Part shown: in pieces, positions 44,182 to 56,300 of the stretch | Numbering within the stretch: the first letter of the stretch is position 1 | Layout of the letters: each line of letters opens with the position of its first letter | Source of the DNA: an uncultured Candidatus Saccharibacteria bacterium | GTDB lineage: Bacteria; Patescibacteriota; Minisyncoccia; Phycocordibacterales; UBA918 | Length of the DNA: 64,000 bases | Assembly (NCBI GenBank): GCA_964350985.1 | Contig: CAYGLK010000001.1 | Span: forward strand, 457,973-521,972 | Direction: 5' to 3' | Notes under the pieces: model-generated | What the model was told of the DNA's origin: nothing | The model's input: only the letters and a program-made list of their open reading frames with translations | The model's database searches: none | Made by a program: the position numbers and the translations under genes

Positions 44182-44234
44182 GTTTTGTTTTTTACCCTTA
44201 TGCGGTAAAATAGCACCACTACAAAATAATTTTG
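44182..44234 (+). repeat. 53-bp direct repeat, copy 2, immediately upstream of and overlapping the trxB start. A terminator hairpin lies at 44155-44181.
   Basis: gttttgttttttacccttatgcggtaaaatagcaccactacaaaataattttg. Confidence 0.7.
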
Positions 44235-45164
44235 CCTTTTATGTTTGAATTGACGATTATCGGTGGCGGACCAGCTGGAACAGCGGCCGGAGTCTACGCG
44301 TCTCGAAAACAACTAAAAACTCTCTTGGTAACCAAAGAATGGGGTGGCCAAAGTACTGTCTCTCCAGATATTCAAAACTGGATTGGTACCACCTCTATTG
44401 CTGGCGACAAATTAGCCTCTGACCTTAAAGGTCACCTAGAGGCCTATGCTGGTGATTACGTCACTGTTAAGGGTAATTCTTTAGTTACAACCATCACTAA
44501 GTCAGAAGCTGGCTTCTCAGTCACTCTAGACTCAGGTGAAACTTTCGAAACTAAAACAATCTTAGTTGCCAGCGGATCAAAGCGTCGCCAATTACCCGCT
44601 AAGAATGCAGACATTTTCGAACACAAAGGTCTAACCTACTGTGCTAGTTGCGATGGACCATTGTTTAGTGGACAAGATGTAGTTGTTATCGGTGGCGGTA
44701 ATGCTGCTTTTGAAACAGCTGCTCAGCTACTTGCCTACACTAAGAGTGTTACCTTGCTGCAACGCGGTGGTATCTACAAAGCTGATCCAGTAACGGTAGA
44801 GAAAGTACTCAGTCACCCAAACATGACTGGCGTACTAAATGCTCAAGTAACTGAAGTTTCTGGTGACAAATTTGTTTCTGGACTAACCTACTTAGACGGA
44901 CAAACAAATGAAAGTACGGAGATTAAAGCTACTGGTATATTTGTTGAGATCGGAATGATTCCAAACACTGACTACTTAAAAAACGTAGTTGAACTAGATC
45001 AGTACCAAAGAGTAGCGATTGACCCATGGTCTCAGAAGACAAACACTCCTGGTATCTGGGCAGCTGGTGATTGTACCAACGTGCTCTACCACCAAAATAA
45101 CATCGCTGCTGGCGATGCTGTACGGGCACTAGAAGACATCTACGTTACACTAAAGACTAAGTAA
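44232..45164 (+). CDS. trxB: Thioredoxin reductase
   Basis: 310 aa. FAD site IIGGGPAGTAAGVYA, redox CASCDG, NADPH site GGGNAAFE. The start is the TTG at 44232 or the ATG at 44241. Confidence 0.85.
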   Translation: MPFMFELTIIGGGPAGTAAGVYASRKQLKTLLVTKEWGGQSTVSPDIQNWIGTTSIAGDKLASDLKGHLEAYAGDYVTVKGNSLVTTITKSEAGFSVTLDSGETFETKTILVASGSKRRQLPAKNADIFEHKGLTYCASCDGPLFSGQDVVVIGGGNAAFETAAQLLAYTKSVTLLQRGGIYKADPVTVEKVLSHPNMTGVLNAQVTEVSGDKFVSGLTYLDGQTNESTEIKATGIFVEIGMIPNTDYLKNVVELDQYQRVAIDPWSQKTNTPGIWAAGDCTNVLYHQNNIAAGDAVRALEDIYVTLKTK

Positions 45165-45186
45165 TCGCTCAAATATTAAAATACGT

Positions 45187-45212
45187 AAAAGGCGCCCCTC
45201 CAGGCGCCTTTT
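45187..45212. terminator. Hairpin aaaaggcgcccctccaggcgcctttt after trxB
   Basis: Perfect GC stem. Confidence 0.65.
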
Positions 45213-45469
45213 ACTTTGTACAACGTAGAGTTTTGGCCTGCGCGCTTTGCCCTTAAAGAGCGTTGTATTAGAGATACATTACCACCGCGCAAACCTACAA
45301 ACAGCTTCTCATAGATTAGTAAGTAGAGTCAATCGGTTAATAAAAGCTTATTTACAGCCACACTGTGTATAAAGGTGTGTAAAAACCATGCATAACTGTG
45401 TGTAAAGGTTTTGTATAACTATGAGTAAAACTACTTGACTCGGTTTAGAAAATACTTTGAGATTTATGC

Positions 45470-46228
45470 TTATCCAGCAAAGAAAGTCCCCACGTAGTAA
45501 GCGATCAAAGCAGCTGCTACTCCAACAGTAACTACTTCTACCATTGCTGCCATCAGAGCTCCTCCTACCACTCGCCACTTTAGGAGACCAAGTAAGATCA
45601 AAGCGAAGAAAGTTCCGATCACTGAAAGTGTAAATACATTTGAAACCGTTCCCTCAGGAATAAAAATAAATGGTAGAAGTGGAATGACTCCAAAAACCAT
45701 GAAGGATAAGAAAGTAGCTGTTCCTGTCATGACTGGGTTTGATCCACGCGGATCAGCCATTTCCAACTTGTGGTTCATCATAAAGTCCACTAAGTACTCA
45801 TGGTTCTTTCCATAGATAGAAGCCAGTGTTTCAGCGTCTTCTGGAGTAAAGCCTTTTTCCATCATCAAAGCTACAGCAGCAGCTCGTTCCCCTGCTGGAT
45901 TATTTTTTAAATGTGCCTCTTCTTTCACTCTAGCTGCGTTATACAGATCCTTCTCTGACCGTACTGACAAGAAGTTTCCTAGACCCATAGAGGCAGCGTC
46001 AGCAAAAAGATTAGCCAAACCGAACAAAAGCACGACCACAAAAGTTAACTGTGTAGAGGTGTCGCTTGAGACTGCTGCACCGGCAAAACCAGCCACAACC
46101 GCAAAAGTAGTAATAATTCCATCAATTCCTCCGTAGATTACCTCTGTAAAATACTCTGCTAAAGGTGAAGTCTTCTTCACTTCCACTCCTTGATTGTTGG
46201 TTAAATTCATATGAAAAAAGTATAACAC
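45470..46228 (-). CDS. VIT1/CCC1-family membrane protein (putative Fe/Mn transporter)
   Basis: Hallmark YGGIDGIITTFAVVAG near the N-terminus and C-terminal TM helices. The start is probably the internal MNLTNN. Confidence 0.6.
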   Translation of the reverse strand: MLYFFHMNLTNNQGVEVKKTSPLAEYFTEVIYGGIDGIITTFAVVAGFAGAAVSSDTSTQLTFVVVLLFGLANLFADAASMGLGNFLSVRSEKDLYNAARVKEEAHLKNNPAGERAAAVALMMEKGFTPEDAETLASIYGKNHEYLVDFMMNHKLEMADPRGSNPVMTGTATFLSFMVFGVIPLLPFIFIPEGTVSNVFTLSVIGTFFALILLGLLKWRVVGGALMAAMVEVVTVGVAAALIAYYVGTFFAG

Positions 46229-46290
46229 GATATTAAAACCCTAGAAATTTTCCCTATTTTTGCTACTATAGTGGCCGTAGCGAAGATACT

Positions 46291-46362
46291 GGCCCTATCG
46301 TATAACGGCTAGTACACAGGATTCTCATTCCTGGAATCGGAGTTCGATTCTCCGTAGGGTCA
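46291..46362 (+). tRNA. tRNA-Glu (anticodon CTC)
   Basis: Acceptor GGCCCTA/TAGGGTC, anticodon stem CAGGA/TCCTG, loop TTCTCAT, T-arm GGAG-TTCGATT-CTCC. A terminator hairpin follows. Confidence 0.8.
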
Positions 46363-46586
46363 CGAGTACAAAAAAGCGCACCTTAGGGCGCCTTTTTTGT
46401 TCGTGATCCCGCAACTAAACAGTCTGGAGGAATGTTTACGTGAGAATCGAAAAACTTTTGAGATATTTCAGAAATGAAGTGAAAGATTATACTTTGTGAT
46501 TCGTGACCACAAAATAATATTGATTTCATAGTTTTAAAAAAGAGACCAGTGTCTTGCACCAGCCTCTTTTGTGGTTTGTGAAACTA

Positions 46587-47099: not shown

Positions 47100-47127
47100 G
47101 GTTCCAATTCGTACTACATAGGGTCAC
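47100..47127 (+). repeat. 28-nt box GGTTCCAATTCGTACTACATAGGGTCAC, copy 1. Its 3' half matches the tRNA-Glu 3' end (TAGGGTCAC). A perfect terminator hairpin follows at 47150-47190.
   Basis: Direct sequence identity with copies at 50565, 51241 and 51667 (the last is degenerate). Confidence 0.7.
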
Positions 47128-47199
47128 CAATTCGTGCTAGCACGAGAAGCATACAAAAATAGCTCCGAAAGGAGCTATTTTTGTATGCTTACTGCCAGA

Positions 47200-47781
47200 T
47201 TAGCCAACCTGTCTTATCCAGTCACGAGTTATGCTATGAATTCTACCTATTTCAATTTCAGGCAAAATCCCCGTATGCATTATTATATTTCTTGATAATT
47301 CAAGGTCGTTAAATCGAGAAGAAATCCAATGTTGATCAGGAAAAAGGTCTGAAAAATCTTCCCAATTATTCACAATGATTTGTGAAAGATTACCAAACAT
47401 CGTATATCCAATGAGAGAAGAGCTTCTTTGAGCATGGTATTTATTTTTCTCCTCTTTTGTTCTCAAATCATTTGCTGATTTTTTTACCCTTTCAGGGACA
47501 CAAATATCCCACCAAGCCTGCCCTTTTCTATCTGCAAGCCGATCTTCAATAAGGTCTCTTACCGCATTCTCTAGACAAAAGAAAACCTCATAAACATTTC
47601 CCATATTTTTCGCCTTGTTCAACAAAACTGGGCTAAAATCACTTTCTTCAATCGTAGCTAATTCAGTTTTATTCTCTATTCCAACTTCAATCCCTTCTTT
47701 TGCTAGAGACAATAGATCGTCTGTAGCCAAGATTCCGTTGAAAGCTAACTTTTTTAAAGATTTAATGTGTCTAGCTTCCAT
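47200..47781 (-). CDS. HEPN-domain protein (Rx4H motif SRNIIMH), Abi/Swt1-like putative RNase
   Basis: 193 aa. The C-terminal Rx4-6H motif is the HEPN hallmark. It is the second gene of a two-gene operon. Confidence 0.45.
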   Translation of the reverse strand: MEARHIKSLKKLAFNGILATDDLLSLAKEGIEVGIENKTELATIEESDFSPVLLNKAKNMGNVYEVFFCLENAVRDLIEDRLADRKGQAWWDICVPERVKKSANDLRTKEEKNKYHAQRSSSLIGYTMFGNLSQIIVNNWEDFSDLFPDQHWISSRFNDLELSRNIIMHTGILPEIEIGRIHSITRDWIRQVG

Positions 47782-47785
47782 ATAC

Positions 47786-48418
47786 CTAATCGACTAGATT
47801 ATCTCTAAGGCTTTTAAAAATCGCATTGTAGACACTAATATCAGTTGTTGCAGGCAGGTGTATTTCTATGTTGTGCTGAAAACTTATAGCTCTAGGCTCA
47901 TTCTGTAATTCGACCACTTCCTTAGTCGCAGGTTTTACGTCTGAAACCTTATCTGTGGTTTCTTTTGTAGAGATTTCTTTATTAGACAAACTCGGAGATT
48001 GTCCAAACTTAGCTAATGTAGTAAGTGTTTTGAAAGTTAGAAAATACCTAGCTACTGCCACTTCATCTTTTCCTGTTATTCTCGATATAGCTCCTTTTAT
48101 TTCATCATCCGTTTTTGTATAAATCTCAGTATCAATAATAAACAAATCTTTATAAAGATCTTTTATTTTTTCACCAAGAACAAATTTCCAGTCAGATGAA
48201 TCTCTGAGTCTGTCATAGTATTCAGTCGGAACACCATCCTCTGTCATAAAACCAAGTTTTTTTAAAAGTGGAATTATCGCTCTGTCATTTGTACTCGAGA
48301 ACCCTAATTGTTTAAGAAATTCATATGTAAATTTCGTAGGCTTTGCAGCAGCACGAATTTTACTAAAAATAGGTTCAATCTTATTATTAGTTAGTACGTA
48401 AGGATATGAATCAGCCAT
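47786..48418 (-). CDS. Hypothetical partner protein of the HEPN gene (N-terminal wHTH-like region, C-terminal domain)
   Basis: 210 aa. Its stop codon is 4 nt from the HEPN start. I recognise no family. Confidence 0.45.
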   Translation of the reverse strand: MADSYPYVLTNNKIEPIFSKIRAAAKPTKFTYEFLKQLGFSSTNDRAIIPLLKKLGFMTEDGVPTEYYDRLRDSSDWKFVLGEKIKDLYKDLFIIDTEIYTKTDDEIKGAISRITGKDEVAVARYFLTFKTLTTLAKFGQSPSLSNKEISTKETTDKVSDVKPATKEVVELQNEPRAISFQHNIEIHLPATTDISVYNAIFKSLRDNLVD

Positions 48419-48679
48419 AAGTTATAAAAGTTAATATTAAGATGTTTGACATATTATATTATAAAATGACAGATTTGACACACTTCATAAAAAAACACTT
48501 TGAAAAGCTCGGCGCACGAGAAGGGTCGTTAAGATTTCTGTGTCACTAGTCAAAATTGCCTTACAGGGCAATAAGTTGACGAGGTTCTATCTCGAGAAGG
48601 CTCACAAATTTTACAGTCTCATATTAAGCTACGTTTAAACAACTACAAAGGGACGTTGGAACCGTGGTAGAATTTTTGT

Positions 48680-49546
48680 ATGAAAATAGGAACATGGAAT
48701 TTAAAATTTCTTTTCGATGAAGGAACTCGGCTCTATTCTGGAGTTGAAACAGAATTTACAAAAGAGTTTGTTGAAAAACGATTTACATACTTTGCAGAAC
48801 AGTTTGATTTACTTGATTGTGATATTTTATTTTTGCAAGAAGTTGGAGACAAAAGTGCTTTAGAAAAAATAGTTGCTCAGACAAAAAATGATTATTCATA
48901 TTTTATTGCTAATCCAGATGCATACGGAACAGGAAATGCTGTTATTTATAAAAGTAACCTAAACTGCAAATGTGAATCTGTCTCTACGAATAGTACGGTG
49001 CCGGTATTTAATGAGGAAGATACTGACACTATTACTAACAGAATAAAATCCCGCAGAGACTACGTTAAACTTGAGACGACAGTAAATAATCAAGCGCTAG
49101 TACTAGTAGGGCTACACATTAAGGCACGATTTCTTGTATATAAAAATGGAAGTAGTTTTCCAAACGAAGAAGAAAAAGATTCTCAAGTTTTGGCTGCAGA
49201 TGGTGCAATACGTTCTGAGATATTTAGATTAAACCAAGCCAAGAAAGTTAGAGAAATTGCGAGCAATGTTTTAGGTAATGAAAATACTCACTTCATAGCT
49301 TTAGGAGATTTTAATGCTGAGCAAAATTCTGAAGTAGTAAAGATAATTCGGGGAGGGATTAAGGATAGACATGACACACTCAGACTGATAACTGAAGATT
49401 CAGCAATTGACCATATCTTTGTTTCTCAGTCACTGGAAGAGAAAGTGTCTAATATAGAAATACTAAATGAATTAAAAGCTTCTGACGGCGGTGCTGAAAT
49501 CGTTGAAAGTGACCACGCTCCCATAACATTTAAACTGCAGTTTTAG
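48680..49546 (+). CDS. Endonuclease/exonuclease/phosphatase (EEP) family protein
   Basis: 288 aa. MKIGTWNL, LQEV, GDFN and SDHAP motifs. Extended -10 TGgTAGAAT upstream. Confidence 0.7.
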   Translation: MKIGTWNLKFLFDEGTRLYSGVETEFTKEFVEKRFTYFAEQFDLLDCDILFLQEVGDKSALEKIVAQTKNDYSYFIANPDAYGTGNAVIYKSNLNCKCESVSTNSTVPVFNEEDTDTITNRIKSRRDYVKLETTVNNQALVLVGLHIKARFLVYKNGSSFPNEEEKDSQVLAADGAIRSEIFRLNQAKKVREIASNVLGNENTHFIALGDFNAEQNSEVVKIIRGGIKDRHDTLRLITEDSAIDHIFVSQSLEEKVSNIEILNELKASDGGAEIVESDHAPITFKLQF

Positions 49547-49672
49547 TCTTAATTCTTAATCTCAGCTCACCCTCTAGTTGCTTAACTATTTCGTTCCGAT
49601 TCCGTCTCAGTTAGATAACAACGACTTTTGAGATTAATTTAAAAGGATTATTTTTATTAACCAAGAAGATAC

Positions 49673-50545
49673 TTGGAACTTTTGTTATACTTGAGATATA
49701 TGGAATCTATTAATACAGAACCTGACCAAGAAATGGTACCTTCAGAACAGACCCAAATAATCTTGAATATACTTAAAGAGGTAGAGCAGATTGTCCTAAG
49801 ATACTTTAAAACTGGAGTCGGGGTTGAATATAAAAAAGATGCCTATGACCCAGTGACTATTGCAGACAAAGAAGCAGATAAACATATTAGAGAAGCAATT
49901 GCTCGGCAGTTTCCAGGGGACGCAATCTTATCAGAAGAAAGCGAAATAATTCCAGAAAACTTCTCTGGGCGAGTTTGGATGATTGATCCTTTAAATGGCA
50001 CAAAATCTTTTATTAAAGGCTCCGACACCTTTGCTGTGGTTATGGGATTAGTTGAAGACGGAGTGCCTGTTTTAGGATGCGTTAGTCTACCTGCTCAGAA
50101 GATAACGTTCCATGCCGAAAGAGGAGCTGGGTCATTTAAGGAAATATCAGGAAAAAGAACTCGATTACAAAGTAGTTTAGTTTCTGAAATTGAGCAAGCT
50201 AGACTTATCACTCGCGAACCCAGTGCAGAAATCAGACCTTTAGAGCAAAAAGTCAGCCAACTGCCCTTCCTTGAAACCTTAGAACAAGGAAGTGGAGCAA
50301 AACTATGCATGATAGCAAACGGTGAAGCAGAGGCACATATAAATACTAACTCTAGAGCTTCAAAATGGGACATTGCTGCACTACAGCTTATTTTGGAAGA
50401 AGCCGGAGGTAAAGTTACAGACTTAGACGGAAAACCAATAAATTACACAGAAGCGGAAGTCTTACTTACAAGAAGCTATGTGGCTTCGGCTAACTCTGAA
50501 CTACACTCTAAAATTATTGCAGGATTAAGAAACCTTGAGGTGTAA
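49673..50545 (+). CDS. Inositol monophosphatase / CysQ (3'(2'),5'-bisphosphate nucleotidase) family protein
   Basis: 290 aa. EE..E metal-binding region, WMIDPLNGT and a G..DTF-like motif. Confidence 0.65.
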   Translation: MELLLYLRYMESINTEPDQEMVPSEQTQIILNILKEVEQIVLRYFKTGVGVEYKKDAYDPVTIADKEADKHIREAIARQFPGDAILSEESEIIPENFSGRVWMIDPLNGTKSFIKGSDTFAVVMGLVEDGVPVLGCVSLPAQKITFHAERGAGSFKEISGKRTRLQSSLVSEIEQARLITREPSAEIRPLEQKVSQLPFLETLEQGSGAKLCMIANGEAEAHINTNSRASKWDIAALQLILEEAGGKVTDLDGKPINYTEAEVLLTRSYVASANSELHSKIIAGLRNLEV

Positions 50546-50564
50546 AACACTTGTTTTACTATCC

Positions 50565-50592
50565 GGTTCCAATTCGTACTACATAGGGTCAC
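50565..50592 (+). repeat. 28-nt tRNA-Glu-3'-like box, copy 2, followed by the hairpin aaagcaccctttgggtgcttttt
   Basis: Identical 28-mer. Confidence 0.7.
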
Positions 50593-51240: not shown

Positions 51241-51268
51241 GGTTCCAATTCGTACTACATAGGGTCAC
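51241..51268 (+). repeat. 28-nt tRNA-Glu-3'-like box, copy 3. It is followed by the same trailer and terminator as the real tRNA-Glu (gagtacaaaaaagagcgcctttgggcgctttttt).
   Basis: Over 45 nt match the region downstream of tRNA-Glu. Confidence 0.7.
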
Positions 51269-51666: not shown

Positions 51667-51689
51667 ACAATCGTACTACATAGGCTCAC
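51667..51689 (+). repeat. Degenerate copy 4 of the box (acaatcgtactacataggctcac), plus a terminator hairpin
   Basis: 18 of 23 positions match the core. Confidence 0.5.
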
Positions 51690-51751
51690 AAAATTAAAAA
51701 GACTAAGATATAAAATCTTGGTCTTTTTAATTTTGTGAAAAAATACTAATC

Positions 51752-53308: not shown

Positions 53309-53320
53309 TTAATCTCTTCT

Positions 53321-56300
53321 TTACAAAATCCTCACCGCTCCATTGTCAGCATCGACCTCGACCCTATCACCGTTTTTCAAAACCTGGGTTGCTTTTTCTG
53401 TTCCAATTACACAAGGGATATTGAGTTCACGAGCAACAATAGCAGCATGACATGTCACTCCTCCTCTGTTGGTAATTATTGCACCAGCCTGGGACATTAG
53501 TGGTAAAAATGTCGGCGAGGTCATATCACAAACCAAAACATCACCCTTACTGAATTTATCTGAAGCTGGATCTGTAACAACAGAAACTGTACCACTGTAC
53601 TTTCCTAAACAAGCTGTTTGTCCATTAAGATCACCTTTTACTTCAGATGCATTAATACTTGGTATTTGTTGTGTGATTAGACGATTATAGTCAATAAACC
53701 ACAGCCCTTGATCTGTATCCACTGTTTCAAAATAGCCATTTAAGTAGTCAAAACTAAATGTTCCATTTAACTGTTTTGAAATCTCAGCTTTTTGCGTCTC
53801 GTTAACTTTCAAATAACTAACCACTTTTTTAAGATGCTCCTCTGCTTCTTTATTAGCAGGTACAAGTTTCCATTCGTTGAAATCATACTCGAAAGAAATC
53901 GGTGTGTTTTCTAAGTAAAATCCTTGGGTTAATTTTTCATGAGAGTCAGCAATAACTTCGCCGCGAATACCTGATTCACTGACTACAAATATGGTCGACC
54001 AATAACTGATGTCTGCATCAGGAACAAAATCCGCTCGATACTTTGAAGGATCGACTTCTTGTTCAACTAACCAAGTTTCGACCACTTCTCGCACAGTCTT
54101 ACCTCTCATTCTTAGCTTCTTCAAATTATTATCCAAAGGGATCAAACGTAGGGCACATTTTTCACTACCATGGTTTTCTAAATATGATTTAAATTCATCT
54201 GATCTATCAACTACATCACTTAAACTAAACTGGGTTGGTCTATCGAATGGTATCCCAGTAATTTCATTCAAAACAGCTAGCCGTTCTCTCTTCTCATTAT
54301 CCTCATCCCGATGTTTTGCAGCGTCTTCATGACTCATATTTCCAAGCCATTCCGTCAAGGAAATTTGCTTATCAAAAAATTCTTCTTTAGGTGCAGTCAC
54401 ATCAGTAGGCAATGAATCATTCTTCTCCAAAATCCTCACCACTCCCTTATCTGCATCGACCTCGACTAAGTCTCCGTCTTTTAATATTTCAGTCGCTACT
54501 TTGGTTCCTACTACACAAGGTTTTCTAAATTCTCGGGCAACAATTGCAGCGTGACAAATAACTCCACCTTCGTCAGTAACAAAAGCTGCGGCTTTTCTCA
54601 TAGCGTCAATATATGCAGGAGTGGTCATTCCAGCAACCAAAATTTCACCCTCCTTAAGCAACTTACTATCTTCTTGAGTCTGGATGATTCTCACCTTACC
54701 TTGTACCACACCAGCAAAAGCAACCTTTCCTTCTAAGAGGTTACTCTTCTGAACTTCAGTTTTTTCCAACCCCTGAGCCATGGCAAATTCTTCAACCTGT
54801 TTTTTACCAAAGAAAAACTCATAACGGTCACCTTGTGAAAGTATGGCAAAGTGAGTTTTACGTTCTTCCAATTCTTCGACACTTGGCAAAGTATCTGCCT
54901 CAGCCCACTGATAAAATTCCTTTTCAGTGAGCCGTAACAATGAATCGTCTAAACCTAGGGCTTTCAAAGTCTCACGCAAGGCCCAATTTGCTCTAACTAA
55001 AGCTGTTTTTCCTTCGTCATGTAAATAAGAAAGCTTCTGTACAATACTGGCTAACCATTGTTCATATTCCGAGAATTGAGTTTGGGTAAAATCAGAACTT
55101 TCGTTAATTTCCAAAACATTGCCTTGCAAAATTCTCTTGTAATCAGCAGCATTCCAACTCTTAGAGACATATTCTGAATGTATGAAACCATACTCTTTCG
55201 CTAGATTTTCTGCTTGTTCATTCAACCACTCAGCTGATTTATTTGTAATTTCATTTTGAATTAAATAGATTGCTTGAGATTCTCTAGCAATCAAAGTTCG
55301 GCTATGGGGACGTAACAATTCTTCTTTTATGGGTAAAAAACGATCCCCCAAAGACTCTTTAAGAAACTCCAACGGCACCTTACTACAGCTTAGTCCGAAT
55401 AACATATAACCCATGTTTCTTCGGAAAGTTTTATATAAAAACAAAGCGTCTGTTTTTGTTTCTCCGGGGACAATTTTAAGATCAGTTTTGATTTGAGTGA
55501 TTACTTTTTCAATGTTTTCTTCCAATTCCTTTGATACATTTTTACAATACTCATGTAGGTTGGTACGTTCATTTATTGGAGCGTTCTTGCCGAAAAAAAT
55601 TGGCAACACGACATCATTCTTGAGTATTAAATCATTTCTAGAGCCAAAGTAGACTGGACCAATATTTATTTTTTCTCTACGAGCACTGATGTTGGCATCC
55701 CAATGGAGTAAATCTTGAGTACGTGCTGCCATTTTTTGCCAAGCTACTTCAGTAGTTGAATTTGTTGCTATTTTGTCTGCCTCTTTATTAGTAGGTTTAG
55801 TTACTGAAAGTGTCGTAATCGGGCGACTTTGGACAATATAAAAAGCATTGTTTTCAAAAGCCCACTCTATATCACAAGGAAATCCATAATGATCTTCAAT
55901 AGTGACAATAATATTCGCCAGTTCAGATATTTGTTCTTTATCTAAAACTTGTTGATCAGCTTGCTCTGGTGAAAGTTCGATCCATTCATTAAAACCGTGT
56001 TCTGCATCCAACTTAGTTGAGCGATATAAGGCCTTGTTTTGGCTACTAACGTTAATATCTAAAATATCTCTTGGTTCTTTGGTAACAACATAAGCATCTG
56101 GAGTAACAGAACCAGAAACGATTGCTTCGCCAAGACCAAATCCGGCTTCAATGATTATTTGATTATAATCTTCAGTTACCGGATGTACAGAAAAAGCGAT
56201 TCCAGATTTTTCGGAATTGACCATTTTTTGAACCACAACCGCCACTGAAATATGTGTCGTGTTTAATCCCTTTTCAAAACGATAGAAAATAGCTCTTGGA

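Follow-up and report, generated by a model that had tools for sequence, protein, structure and literature searches.

The closest described relative of the locus treated here is PDC-M34, one of 145 defence candidates known by prediction only, which was obtained through "guilt by embedding", from genes situated inside BREX, DISARM and type I restriction-modification (R-M) loci, and which is listed as cassette CAS_00130 (count 97; Payne et al., bioRxiv 10.1101/2024.01.29.577857). Here we analyse a pair of adjacent genes in a 64,000-nucleotide stretch of contig CAYGLK010000001.1 from an uncultured Candidatus Saccharibacteria bacterium, the whole of which we call the window. Gene A (47786..48418, minus strand, ATG start), the first gene of the operon, encodes a DUF5343 protein of 210 amino acids, and gene B (47200..47781, minus strand, ATG start) encodes a Swt1-family HEPN protein of 193 amino acids, the predicted RNase effector. 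The two proteins match the PADLOC models of PDC-M34 from end to end: residues 1-208 of A fall on positions 1-207 of the 208 in model PDLC04589 (PDC-M34A; E=1.5e-70), and residues 7-193 of B on positions 4-191 of the 192 in model PDLC04592 (PDC-M34B; E=5.3e-67). The order of A then B, their adjacency on one strand and the full-length matches leave no structural difference from PDC-M34; what distinguishes this copy is its setting, in a Parcubacteria-like genome of the candidate phyla radiation (CPR) and outside any R-M or BREX locus. The ClpB protein of the window shares 81-88% identity with proteins assigned to Candidatus Paceibacterota, Nomurabacteria, Kaiserbacteria and Parcubacteria, which makes the host a CPR bacterium of the Parcubacteria type. 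Judged by both models and by the adjacency and co-orientation of the genes, the pair belongs to PDC-M34. It is a further member of an already catalogued, predicted candidate family, and the databases already hold the interpretation given in the original prediction, which had been made from the sequence of the window and had seen in the pair a candidate abortive-infection (Abi) or toxin-antitoxin (TA) defence module, a conclusion that Payne et al. had reached independently for the candidate family. Our literature search found no full-text paper that mentions PDC-M34 or DUF5343, and no paper that joins Swt1, HEPN and anti-phage. Taking the results below together, we consider it probable, at roughly 0.6, that the pair works as a toxin-antitoxin-like abortive-infection module.

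That HEPN toxins come with dedicated partners is well known, and the pair opens no new category. In the type VII TA system HEPN-MNT (HepT/MntA, for example Shewanella SO_3166/SO_3165) the likeness lies in the two-gene operon, in the HEPN RNase toxin with its R-x4-6-H motif and in the neutralising partner encoded upstream. The partner there is, however, a minimal nucleotidyltransferase whereas here it is a DUF5343 protein, so that the partner proper to type VII is missing, and B falls in the Swt1/Abi2 clade of HEPN proteins and not in the MNT-associated one. The Pfam matches of A comprise DUF5343 and a sub-threshold SLIDE, with no nucleotidyltransferase family among them, and neutralisation by AMPylation is therefore not expected here.

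A mechanistic precedent for a HEPN nuclease with a winged-helix partner, for which we claim no homology, is the type IX Retron-Kva2, where a separately encoded winged-helix protein wraps the HEPN nuclease and occludes its site, and where release on infection leads to cleavage of host RNA and abortive infection (bioRxiv 10.64898/2026.07.14.738597). That system includes a reverse transcriptase and multicopy single-stranded DNA, neither of which is present here; its HEPN protein lacks the canonical R-x4-6-H, whereas B has R-x4-H; and its partner is made of two alpha-beta-beta-alpha-beta domains and a C-terminal helix-turn-helix, unlike the layout of A. Bacterial HEPN proteins of the Abi2/Swt1 clade are catalytically active, linked to defence and frequently found inside R-M operons (Anantharaman et al. 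2013, PMC3710099). AbiD and AbiF (Abi_2) belong to the same HEPN clade as B, which itself gave no match to Pfam Abi_2 at E<=1. They and their kin occur as single proteins or fused to AAA+ ATPases, helicases or transmembrane helices, whereas B has a separate DUF5343 partner, and a pairing of HEPN with DUF5343 is not described in the 2013 HEPN survey (PMC3710099). The C-terminal HEPN domain of eukaryotic Swt1 is the eponym of PF18731, the family matched by B. In the eukaryotic protein the HEPN dyad is fused to a PIN nuclease and the HEPN domain is thought to be inactive (PMC3710099), whereas B is stand-alone, prokaryotic and retains an intact motif.

The two proteins and a model of their interplay

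The open reading frames (ORFs) bear out the two-gene operon of the original prediction, with proteins of 210 and 193 amino acids and a gap of 4 nt between the stop codon of A and the start codon of B; the minus strand, on which both genes lie, had not been stated. This small bicistronic operon, with the gene in the antitoxin position upstream, has the layout of type II TA systems. Since the databases hold 1438 homologues of A and 442 of B, both can be taken as real genes and not as chance ORFs. Upstream of A, 34 nt from its start codon, lies a promoter-like site (48453..48481, minus strand) in which GTGTCA and TATAAT are separated by 17 nt; it agrees with the consensus at 10 of 12 positions and is the best in the region, but it is no more than a match to the consensus, and such sites are no more numerous there than expected from shuffling. 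Downstream, a perfect hairpin of 20 bp (47147..47190, minus strand) starts 10 nt past the stop codon of B and, with an RNA folding energy of -40.8 kcal/mol (z = -9.8 against shuffles), is likely to be the terminator of the operon. Directly beside this hairpin, between the stop codon of B and the first of the direct repeats described further below, there is a perfect 14-nt palindrome, TCGTGCTAGCACGA (47132-47145). Scans with Rfam and for tandem repeats, which could have revealed an RNA partner, gave only tRNAs and trivial repeats, and we therefore see no RNA antitoxin. NCBIfam and PHROGs yielded no matches for the pair.

Profile searches of both proteins placed B within the HEPN superfamily, as had been proposed from its motif. 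Residues 66-193 of B cover positions 2-115 of the 115 in Pfam HEPN_Swt1 (PF18731) with E=1.9e-12 and 47.9 bits, well over the curated gathering cut-off of 27.5. The stretch ELSRNIIMHTG proved to be real; it had been placed at the end of the protein, whereas it occupies residues 161-171, 22 residues before the C-terminus. The codons of the HEPN R-x4-H catalytic motif proper, R164-N-I-I-M-H169, are read from the sequence at 47275..47292 (minus strand). In an alignment of 25 homologues with 58-82% identity R164 and H169 are invariant, as are E71, R75 and many aromatic residues, N72 being nearly so. Of 72 copies of B taken from genomes, 67 have the motif, and the other five are truncated ORFs. The AlphaFold2 (AF2) model of B is all-alpha, with a mean predicted local distance difference test (pLDDT) score of 83, a core formed by residues 51-192 and an N-terminal helix (residues 2-28) of low confidence. 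By profile and motif, B is thus a HEPN protein of the Swt1/Abi2 clade with an intact R-x4-H motif.

The partner had been presented as belonging to no recognised family, a statement that has to be withdrawn because residues 6-140 of A match Pfam DUF5343 (PF17278) with E=4.9e-44. We examined its architecture in an AF2 model (mean pLDDT 81) and in an alignment of 27 sequences that spans several phyla. Residues 11-65 (48224..48388, minus strand) form a winged-helix-like unit of three helices and a beta-hairpin (helices at 11-23, 32-37 and 44-55, strands at 58 and 64, pLDDT 86-95), the third of these helices opening with the invariant N44-D45-R46. From the predicted order of these elements, and from a weak match to MarR (E=0.61), we infer a winged-helix fold for the N-domain. 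A helical bundle extends to residue 147 and is followed by a variable, low-complexity linker (residues 148-180; 47879..47977, minus strand) that is predicted to be disordered, with pLDDT below 50 for residues 148-181, and that is unalignable and of different length among homologues. The most conserved stretch of A comes last, at residues 181-208 (47795..47878, minus strand), and reads F-H-x-N-I-x-I-H-L-P-A-T-T-D-I-S-V-Y-N-A-I-F-K-S-L-x-x-N-L, with a run of invariant columns from N183 to L208 and, in the AF2 model, a helix at 194-208. We propose that this C-terminal motif is the element that binds B. The winged-helix-like topology, the linker predicted to be disordered and the conserved C-terminal peptide would correspond to the architecture of a type II antitoxin, with no significant fold match.

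The same layout of about 205 amino acids recurs in almost all of the top 150 of the 2450 representative clusters of DUF5343, and the longer proteins among these 150 carry no extra Pfam domain. One protein of 237 amino acids (P0327, from JGI sample 3300043313) combines a canonical DUF5343 N-domain with a C-terminal tail unrelated to the conserved motif, on a contig that ends before any neighbour; its existence points to an N-domain that can be combined with different tails and, perhaps, with different partners. The weak top Foldseek matches of the A model include dozens of DEAH-box RNA helicases (DHX15/Prp43, Prp2, Prp22, DHX8 and DHX36) and giant-virus helicases, all with E > 0.1, a list that may mirror an arrangement in A of a winged helix with a helical part resembling the 'ratchet'.

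In the mechanism that we propose for the pair, A would be made first and be translationally coupled to B. Built like a type II antitoxin, with a winged-helix-like N-domain and helical bundle (residues 1-147), a linker (148-180) and a peptide of a beta-strand plus a helix (181-208), it would dock the C-terminal peptide on B, probably with the participation of the N-terminal helix of B (2-28), and the docking would keep the HEPN site closed or the dimer unproductive. B would be an RNase active as a dimer, like HEPN toxins, and would arrest growth by cleaving host RNA, phage RNA or both. Infection would free this RNase, either through the loss or degradation of A or through a phage molecule that binds the N-domain of A. 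A further role for the winged helix of A may be repression of the operon. Two segments have low confidence in the monomer models, the C-terminal motif of A and the N-terminal helix of B, and both are probably dependent on the partner; for the helix of B, low confidence in the monomer is to be expected of a segment that folds on binding.

A natural deletion bears on this interface. One protein of 314 amino acids (P0202), encoded on a single 4.5-kb NCBI contig, is an in-frame fusion of A residues 1-146 to B residues 44-192 and is 100% identical on both sides to the intact pair with which it was compared (P0019 and P0143). What has been removed, residue 147 to the end of A and residues 1-43 of B, corresponds exactly to the linker and C-terminal motif of A plus the N-terminal helix of B. 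The strongly conserved C-terminal motif, the two low-confidence segments and this deletion fit an interface between the proteins, without amounting to proof.

The fusion can also be read in another way, since in it the N-domain of A and the HEPN domain stay together in one protein. A could then be a targeting or activating subunit whose winged helix and bundle bind a specific nucleic acid, either of the phage (DNA or RNA) or of the cell (RNA), and direct the HEPN nuclease there; the complex would be the active enzyme, for instance a nuclease of RNA processing or surveillance. The high conservation of the N-domain, with N44-D45-R46 opening the putative recognition helix, would agree with such a role, as would the repeated but never significant Foldseek matches to the part of DEAH-box RNA helicases that comprises the winged helix and helical region, and two genomes in which an intact B stands beside a frameshifted A. 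Every one of those Foldseek matches has, however, an E value greater than 0.1, and the sporadic spread of the cassette (241 stretches in 185,579 species representatives) is unlike that of housekeeping RNA processing. We regard a targeting subunit as improbable, somewhat more so than the simple addiction module considered in the next section, and retain a toxin-antitoxin-like module of abortive infection as the preferred interpretation.

Pairing, spread and decay of the cassette

The distribution of the pair was determined in 185,579 species representatives, one genome per species, by a scan that requires an exact peptide seed and whose counts are hence lower bounds. At least 241 stretches encode a relative of A, and 80 of these loci were fetched. 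The seed was the C-terminal motif of A, so that the conservation of this motif in the 80 loci is partly by construction; for this reason our statements on its conservation are taken from the 27-sequence alignment. Within the CPR the loci come from Saccharibacteria, Zambryskibacteria, Paceibacteria, Shapirobacteria, Uhrbacteria and Gracilibacteria, and among other bacteria from Proteobacteria, Bacteroidota, Firmicutes/Clostridia, Acidobacteriota, Planctomycetota, Verrucomicrobiota, Nitrospinota, Chloroflexota and Gemmatimonadota. One archaeon (Iainarchaeum) is included, so that about 20 bacterial and archaeal lineages are represented overall. A copy of A from Thorarchaeota shares 69% identity with that of the window.

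The dedicated partnership claimed for the two proteins was found wherever it could be looked for: B lies directly downstream of A and on the same strand in all 79 testable loci, with tblastn gaps mostly between -6 and +35 nt. The pairwise identities of A and of B are correlated (r = 0.85), the two proteins diverging in step, and clustering of 851 flanking ORFs showed no other conserved gene that could be a third component. On this evidence the cassette is rare and patchy, has spread horizontally and is inherited as a unit of two genes. A cassette that keeps strictly to two genes in some 20 bacterial and archaeal lineages should lend itself to transfer into a model host. Its culturable carriers include Cupriavidus plantarum, Halopseudomonas laoshanensis (L018), Mucilaginibacter (L009 and L015), Terasakiispira (L017), Brevundimonas diminuta (L071) and Bradyrhizobium (L046 and L081).

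Decayed copies are found on both sides of the pair. B is truncated beside an intact A in five loci (L026, L044, L061, L070 and L079), and A is frameshifted near its start beside an apparently intact B in two (L049 and L063, one of them the isolate Bradyrhizobium liaoningense NBRC 100396). As an indirect test of toxicity these counts, two for A versus five for B, are ambiguous. The copies with truncated B and intact A would suit a plain addiction module with no antiviral role, in which B is the toxin and A a labile antitoxin, and in which loss of the module kills the cell and so stabilises a variable segment of DNA. Such a module would also account for the antitoxin-like gene coming first and the toxin second with 4 nt between them, for the disordered linker in A and for a cassette that stands alone, lacks conserved neighbours and is linked only weakly to defence genes. 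Two facts argue the other way, namely that the family entered PADLOC through instances embedded in BREX, DISARM and type I R-M loci, and that it is almost never found on plasmids, where addiction modules are most useful (one partial match in 72,556). Addiction without defence therefore seems to us unlikely, although the two readings overlap because many HEPN toxin-antitoxin pairs also act in defence.

Several results weigh against the abortive-infection module that we favour. With the models of A and of B, Foldseek found no significant match among solved structures or viral proteins, so that the HEPN fold of B rests on the sequence profile and the motif, and the winged helix of A on the order of its secondary structure and the MarR match. 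Across phyla the mean column identity of A is 62%, a stronger conservation than that of typical antitoxins. Upstream of A we found only weak AT-rich palindromes and no clear operator. The two frameshifted copies of A beside an intact B are unexpected if A is an indispensable antitoxin, unless they reflect sequencing errors or a start codon further downstream. Most neighbours are housekeeping genes, and the enrichment in defence genes is weak: among 287 nearest neighbours the only recurrent Pfam families, which in themselves speak for the module, were GmrSD, DNA methylases, EcoRII, ResIII/DEAD, AbiEii-type AAA_21, Zeta toxin, phage integrase, resolvase and HTH_3, and none of them was found in more than two or three loci, the remainder being housekeeping singletons. 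No phage record out of 50,697 carries the cassette, and one partial match each was obtained from the 72,556 plasmid records and from 2.9 million viral contigs. Finally, in the window itself no ORF between 45.4 and 56.8 kb contains an integrase, transposase or resolvase domain.

What the comparison adds to the catalogue entry is a concrete model for PDC-M34 and DUF5343, with a domain layout for A, a peptide proposed to bind B, invariant catalytic residues in B and a natural deletion that fuses domains of the two proteins. The copy in a Parcubacteria-like genome also adds to the sparse record of innate immunity and addiction modules in CPR bacteria. A bolder proposal, which we put forward tentatively and hold to be less likely true than false, is that DUF5343 constitutes a previously unrecognised class of HEPN regulator, a winged-helix sensor or repressor with a tethered, nearly invariant C-terminal peptide, made of a beta-strand and a helix, that plugs or splits the HEPN dimer. 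PDC-M34 might in that event be a TA/Abi family of new mechanism that is widespread in both Bacteria and Archaea, and might count among the few innate defence modules of the ultra-small CPR bacteria.

The tRNA-Glu hotspot around the pair

The pair lies 0.8 kb from a tRNA-Glu(CTC) gene (46291..46363, plus strand; ARAGORN and Rfam) that anchors a variable region. The original prediction had placed it in an island bounded by att-like repeats, and the repeats are indeed there: a 28-nt direct repeat, GGTTCCAATTCGTACTACATAGGGTCAC, occurs in three exact copies where none is expected by chance, all on the plus strand, at 47100..47127 (copy 1), 50565..50592 (copy 2) and 51241..51268 (copy 3), and copies 1 and 2 flank the pair. 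They form the left and right boundaries of a 3.4-kb unit containing B, A and two further genes. A fourth, degenerate copy is found at 51671-51700. Every copy, including the degenerate one, is followed by a hairpin, and the copies split the 5 kb downstream of tRNA-Glu into units of one to four genes. Copy 3 is followed by a copy of the tRNA-Glu terminator, with 88% identity over 48 nt to 46350-46397. The last 9-10 nt of each 28-nt repeat equal the 3' end of tRNA-Glu, and the array looks like the outcome of serial insertion at an attachment site in the tRNA end. No more than these 9-10 nt are shared with the 3' end of the tRNA, and no integrase accompanies the repeats. Of the features of a tRNA-linked island, the locus thus has the tRNA with related direct repeats and the absence from relatives, and lacks an integrase or recombinase.

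The comparison with relatives was made on 78 metagenome loci (L083-L160) that contain a homologue of VIT1 and are syntenic with positions 44232-46363 of the window. Most of them keep the TrxB-VIT1-tRNA-Glu backbone, and none encodes A, B or the two other products of the 3.4-kb unit. In two of the 78 the distance between the tRNA and EngB is about 1 kb, whereas in the window it is 6.4 kb, and in three (L100, L121 and L157) a second copy of the 12-mer at the 3' end of the tRNA is found 180-940 nt further on; in many the contig ends 20-400 nt past the tRNA. Compared in this way, the site past tRNA-Glu is a recurrent insertion hotspot. The exact cassette is present in only one other assembly, a Logan contig of 3,461 nt (L001, from ERR3534985) that equals window positions 47130-50590 and whose ends fall 2-3 nt from the ends of repeat copies 1 and 2. 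Since 28 nt is shorter than the k-mer of 31 that we assume for the Logan assembly, a clonal genome should not break at these repeats, and the ends of the contig hint at heterogeneity of the population there, in the form of an empty site or an excised circle. Because the pair is absent from the 78 loci and this contig breaks at copies 1 and 2, the synteny places it as cargo of a repeat-bounded 3.4-kb unit in a lineage-specific variable hotspot, and not among syntenic core genes.

This result also bears on whether the pair could serve an ordinary conserved cellular function of the lineage and resemble defence genes only superficially. Many neighbours of the pair elsewhere are housekeeping genes, and no mobility gene stands beside it in the window, as would suit such a function. 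The pair is, however, missing from all 78 loci, most of which retain the flanking backbone; it occurs in scattered species of unrelated phyla and of both domains with 50-70% identity; five of 72 copies are decayed; and exact repeats flank it in a segment of low G+C content. A housekeeping role can hence be set aside as very improbable, and the original prediction was right that these are not core genes conserved in synteny across the phylum.

The gene order in the region begins with TrxB, VIT1, tRNA-Glu(CTC), an ORF for a membrane protein of 142 amino acids and repeat copy 1, followed by B and A on the minus strand. After A come two plus-strand genes divergent from the pair within the repeat-bounded unit, one of the Exo_endo_phos (EEP) family (48680-49546) and one of the inositol-monophosphatase/CysQ (IMPase) family (49673-50545), and then repeat copy 2, a membrane ORF of 137 amino acids and repeat copy 3. 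DUF4190, the degenerate repeat, MliC/DUF4377 and EngB complete the order. The G+C content is 0.33-0.36 across 46.9-49.9 kb and 0.40-0.45 alongside, and PADLOC gave no other matches in the region. The EEP and IMPase genes were considered as components of the system and rejected, as they are not linked to the pair elsewhere and match no defence model or phage family.

Two minor observations concern the surroundings. The tRNA-Glu beside VIT1 has the anticodon CTC in the window and in its closest relatives, whereas most of the other relatives have a TTC anticodon there. Further downstream, a direct repeat of 165 nt with 72% identity (53311-53475 and 54415-54579) lies within a gene for a PPDK_N/PEP-utilizers protein of 1149 amino acids, and is probably an internal domain duplication.

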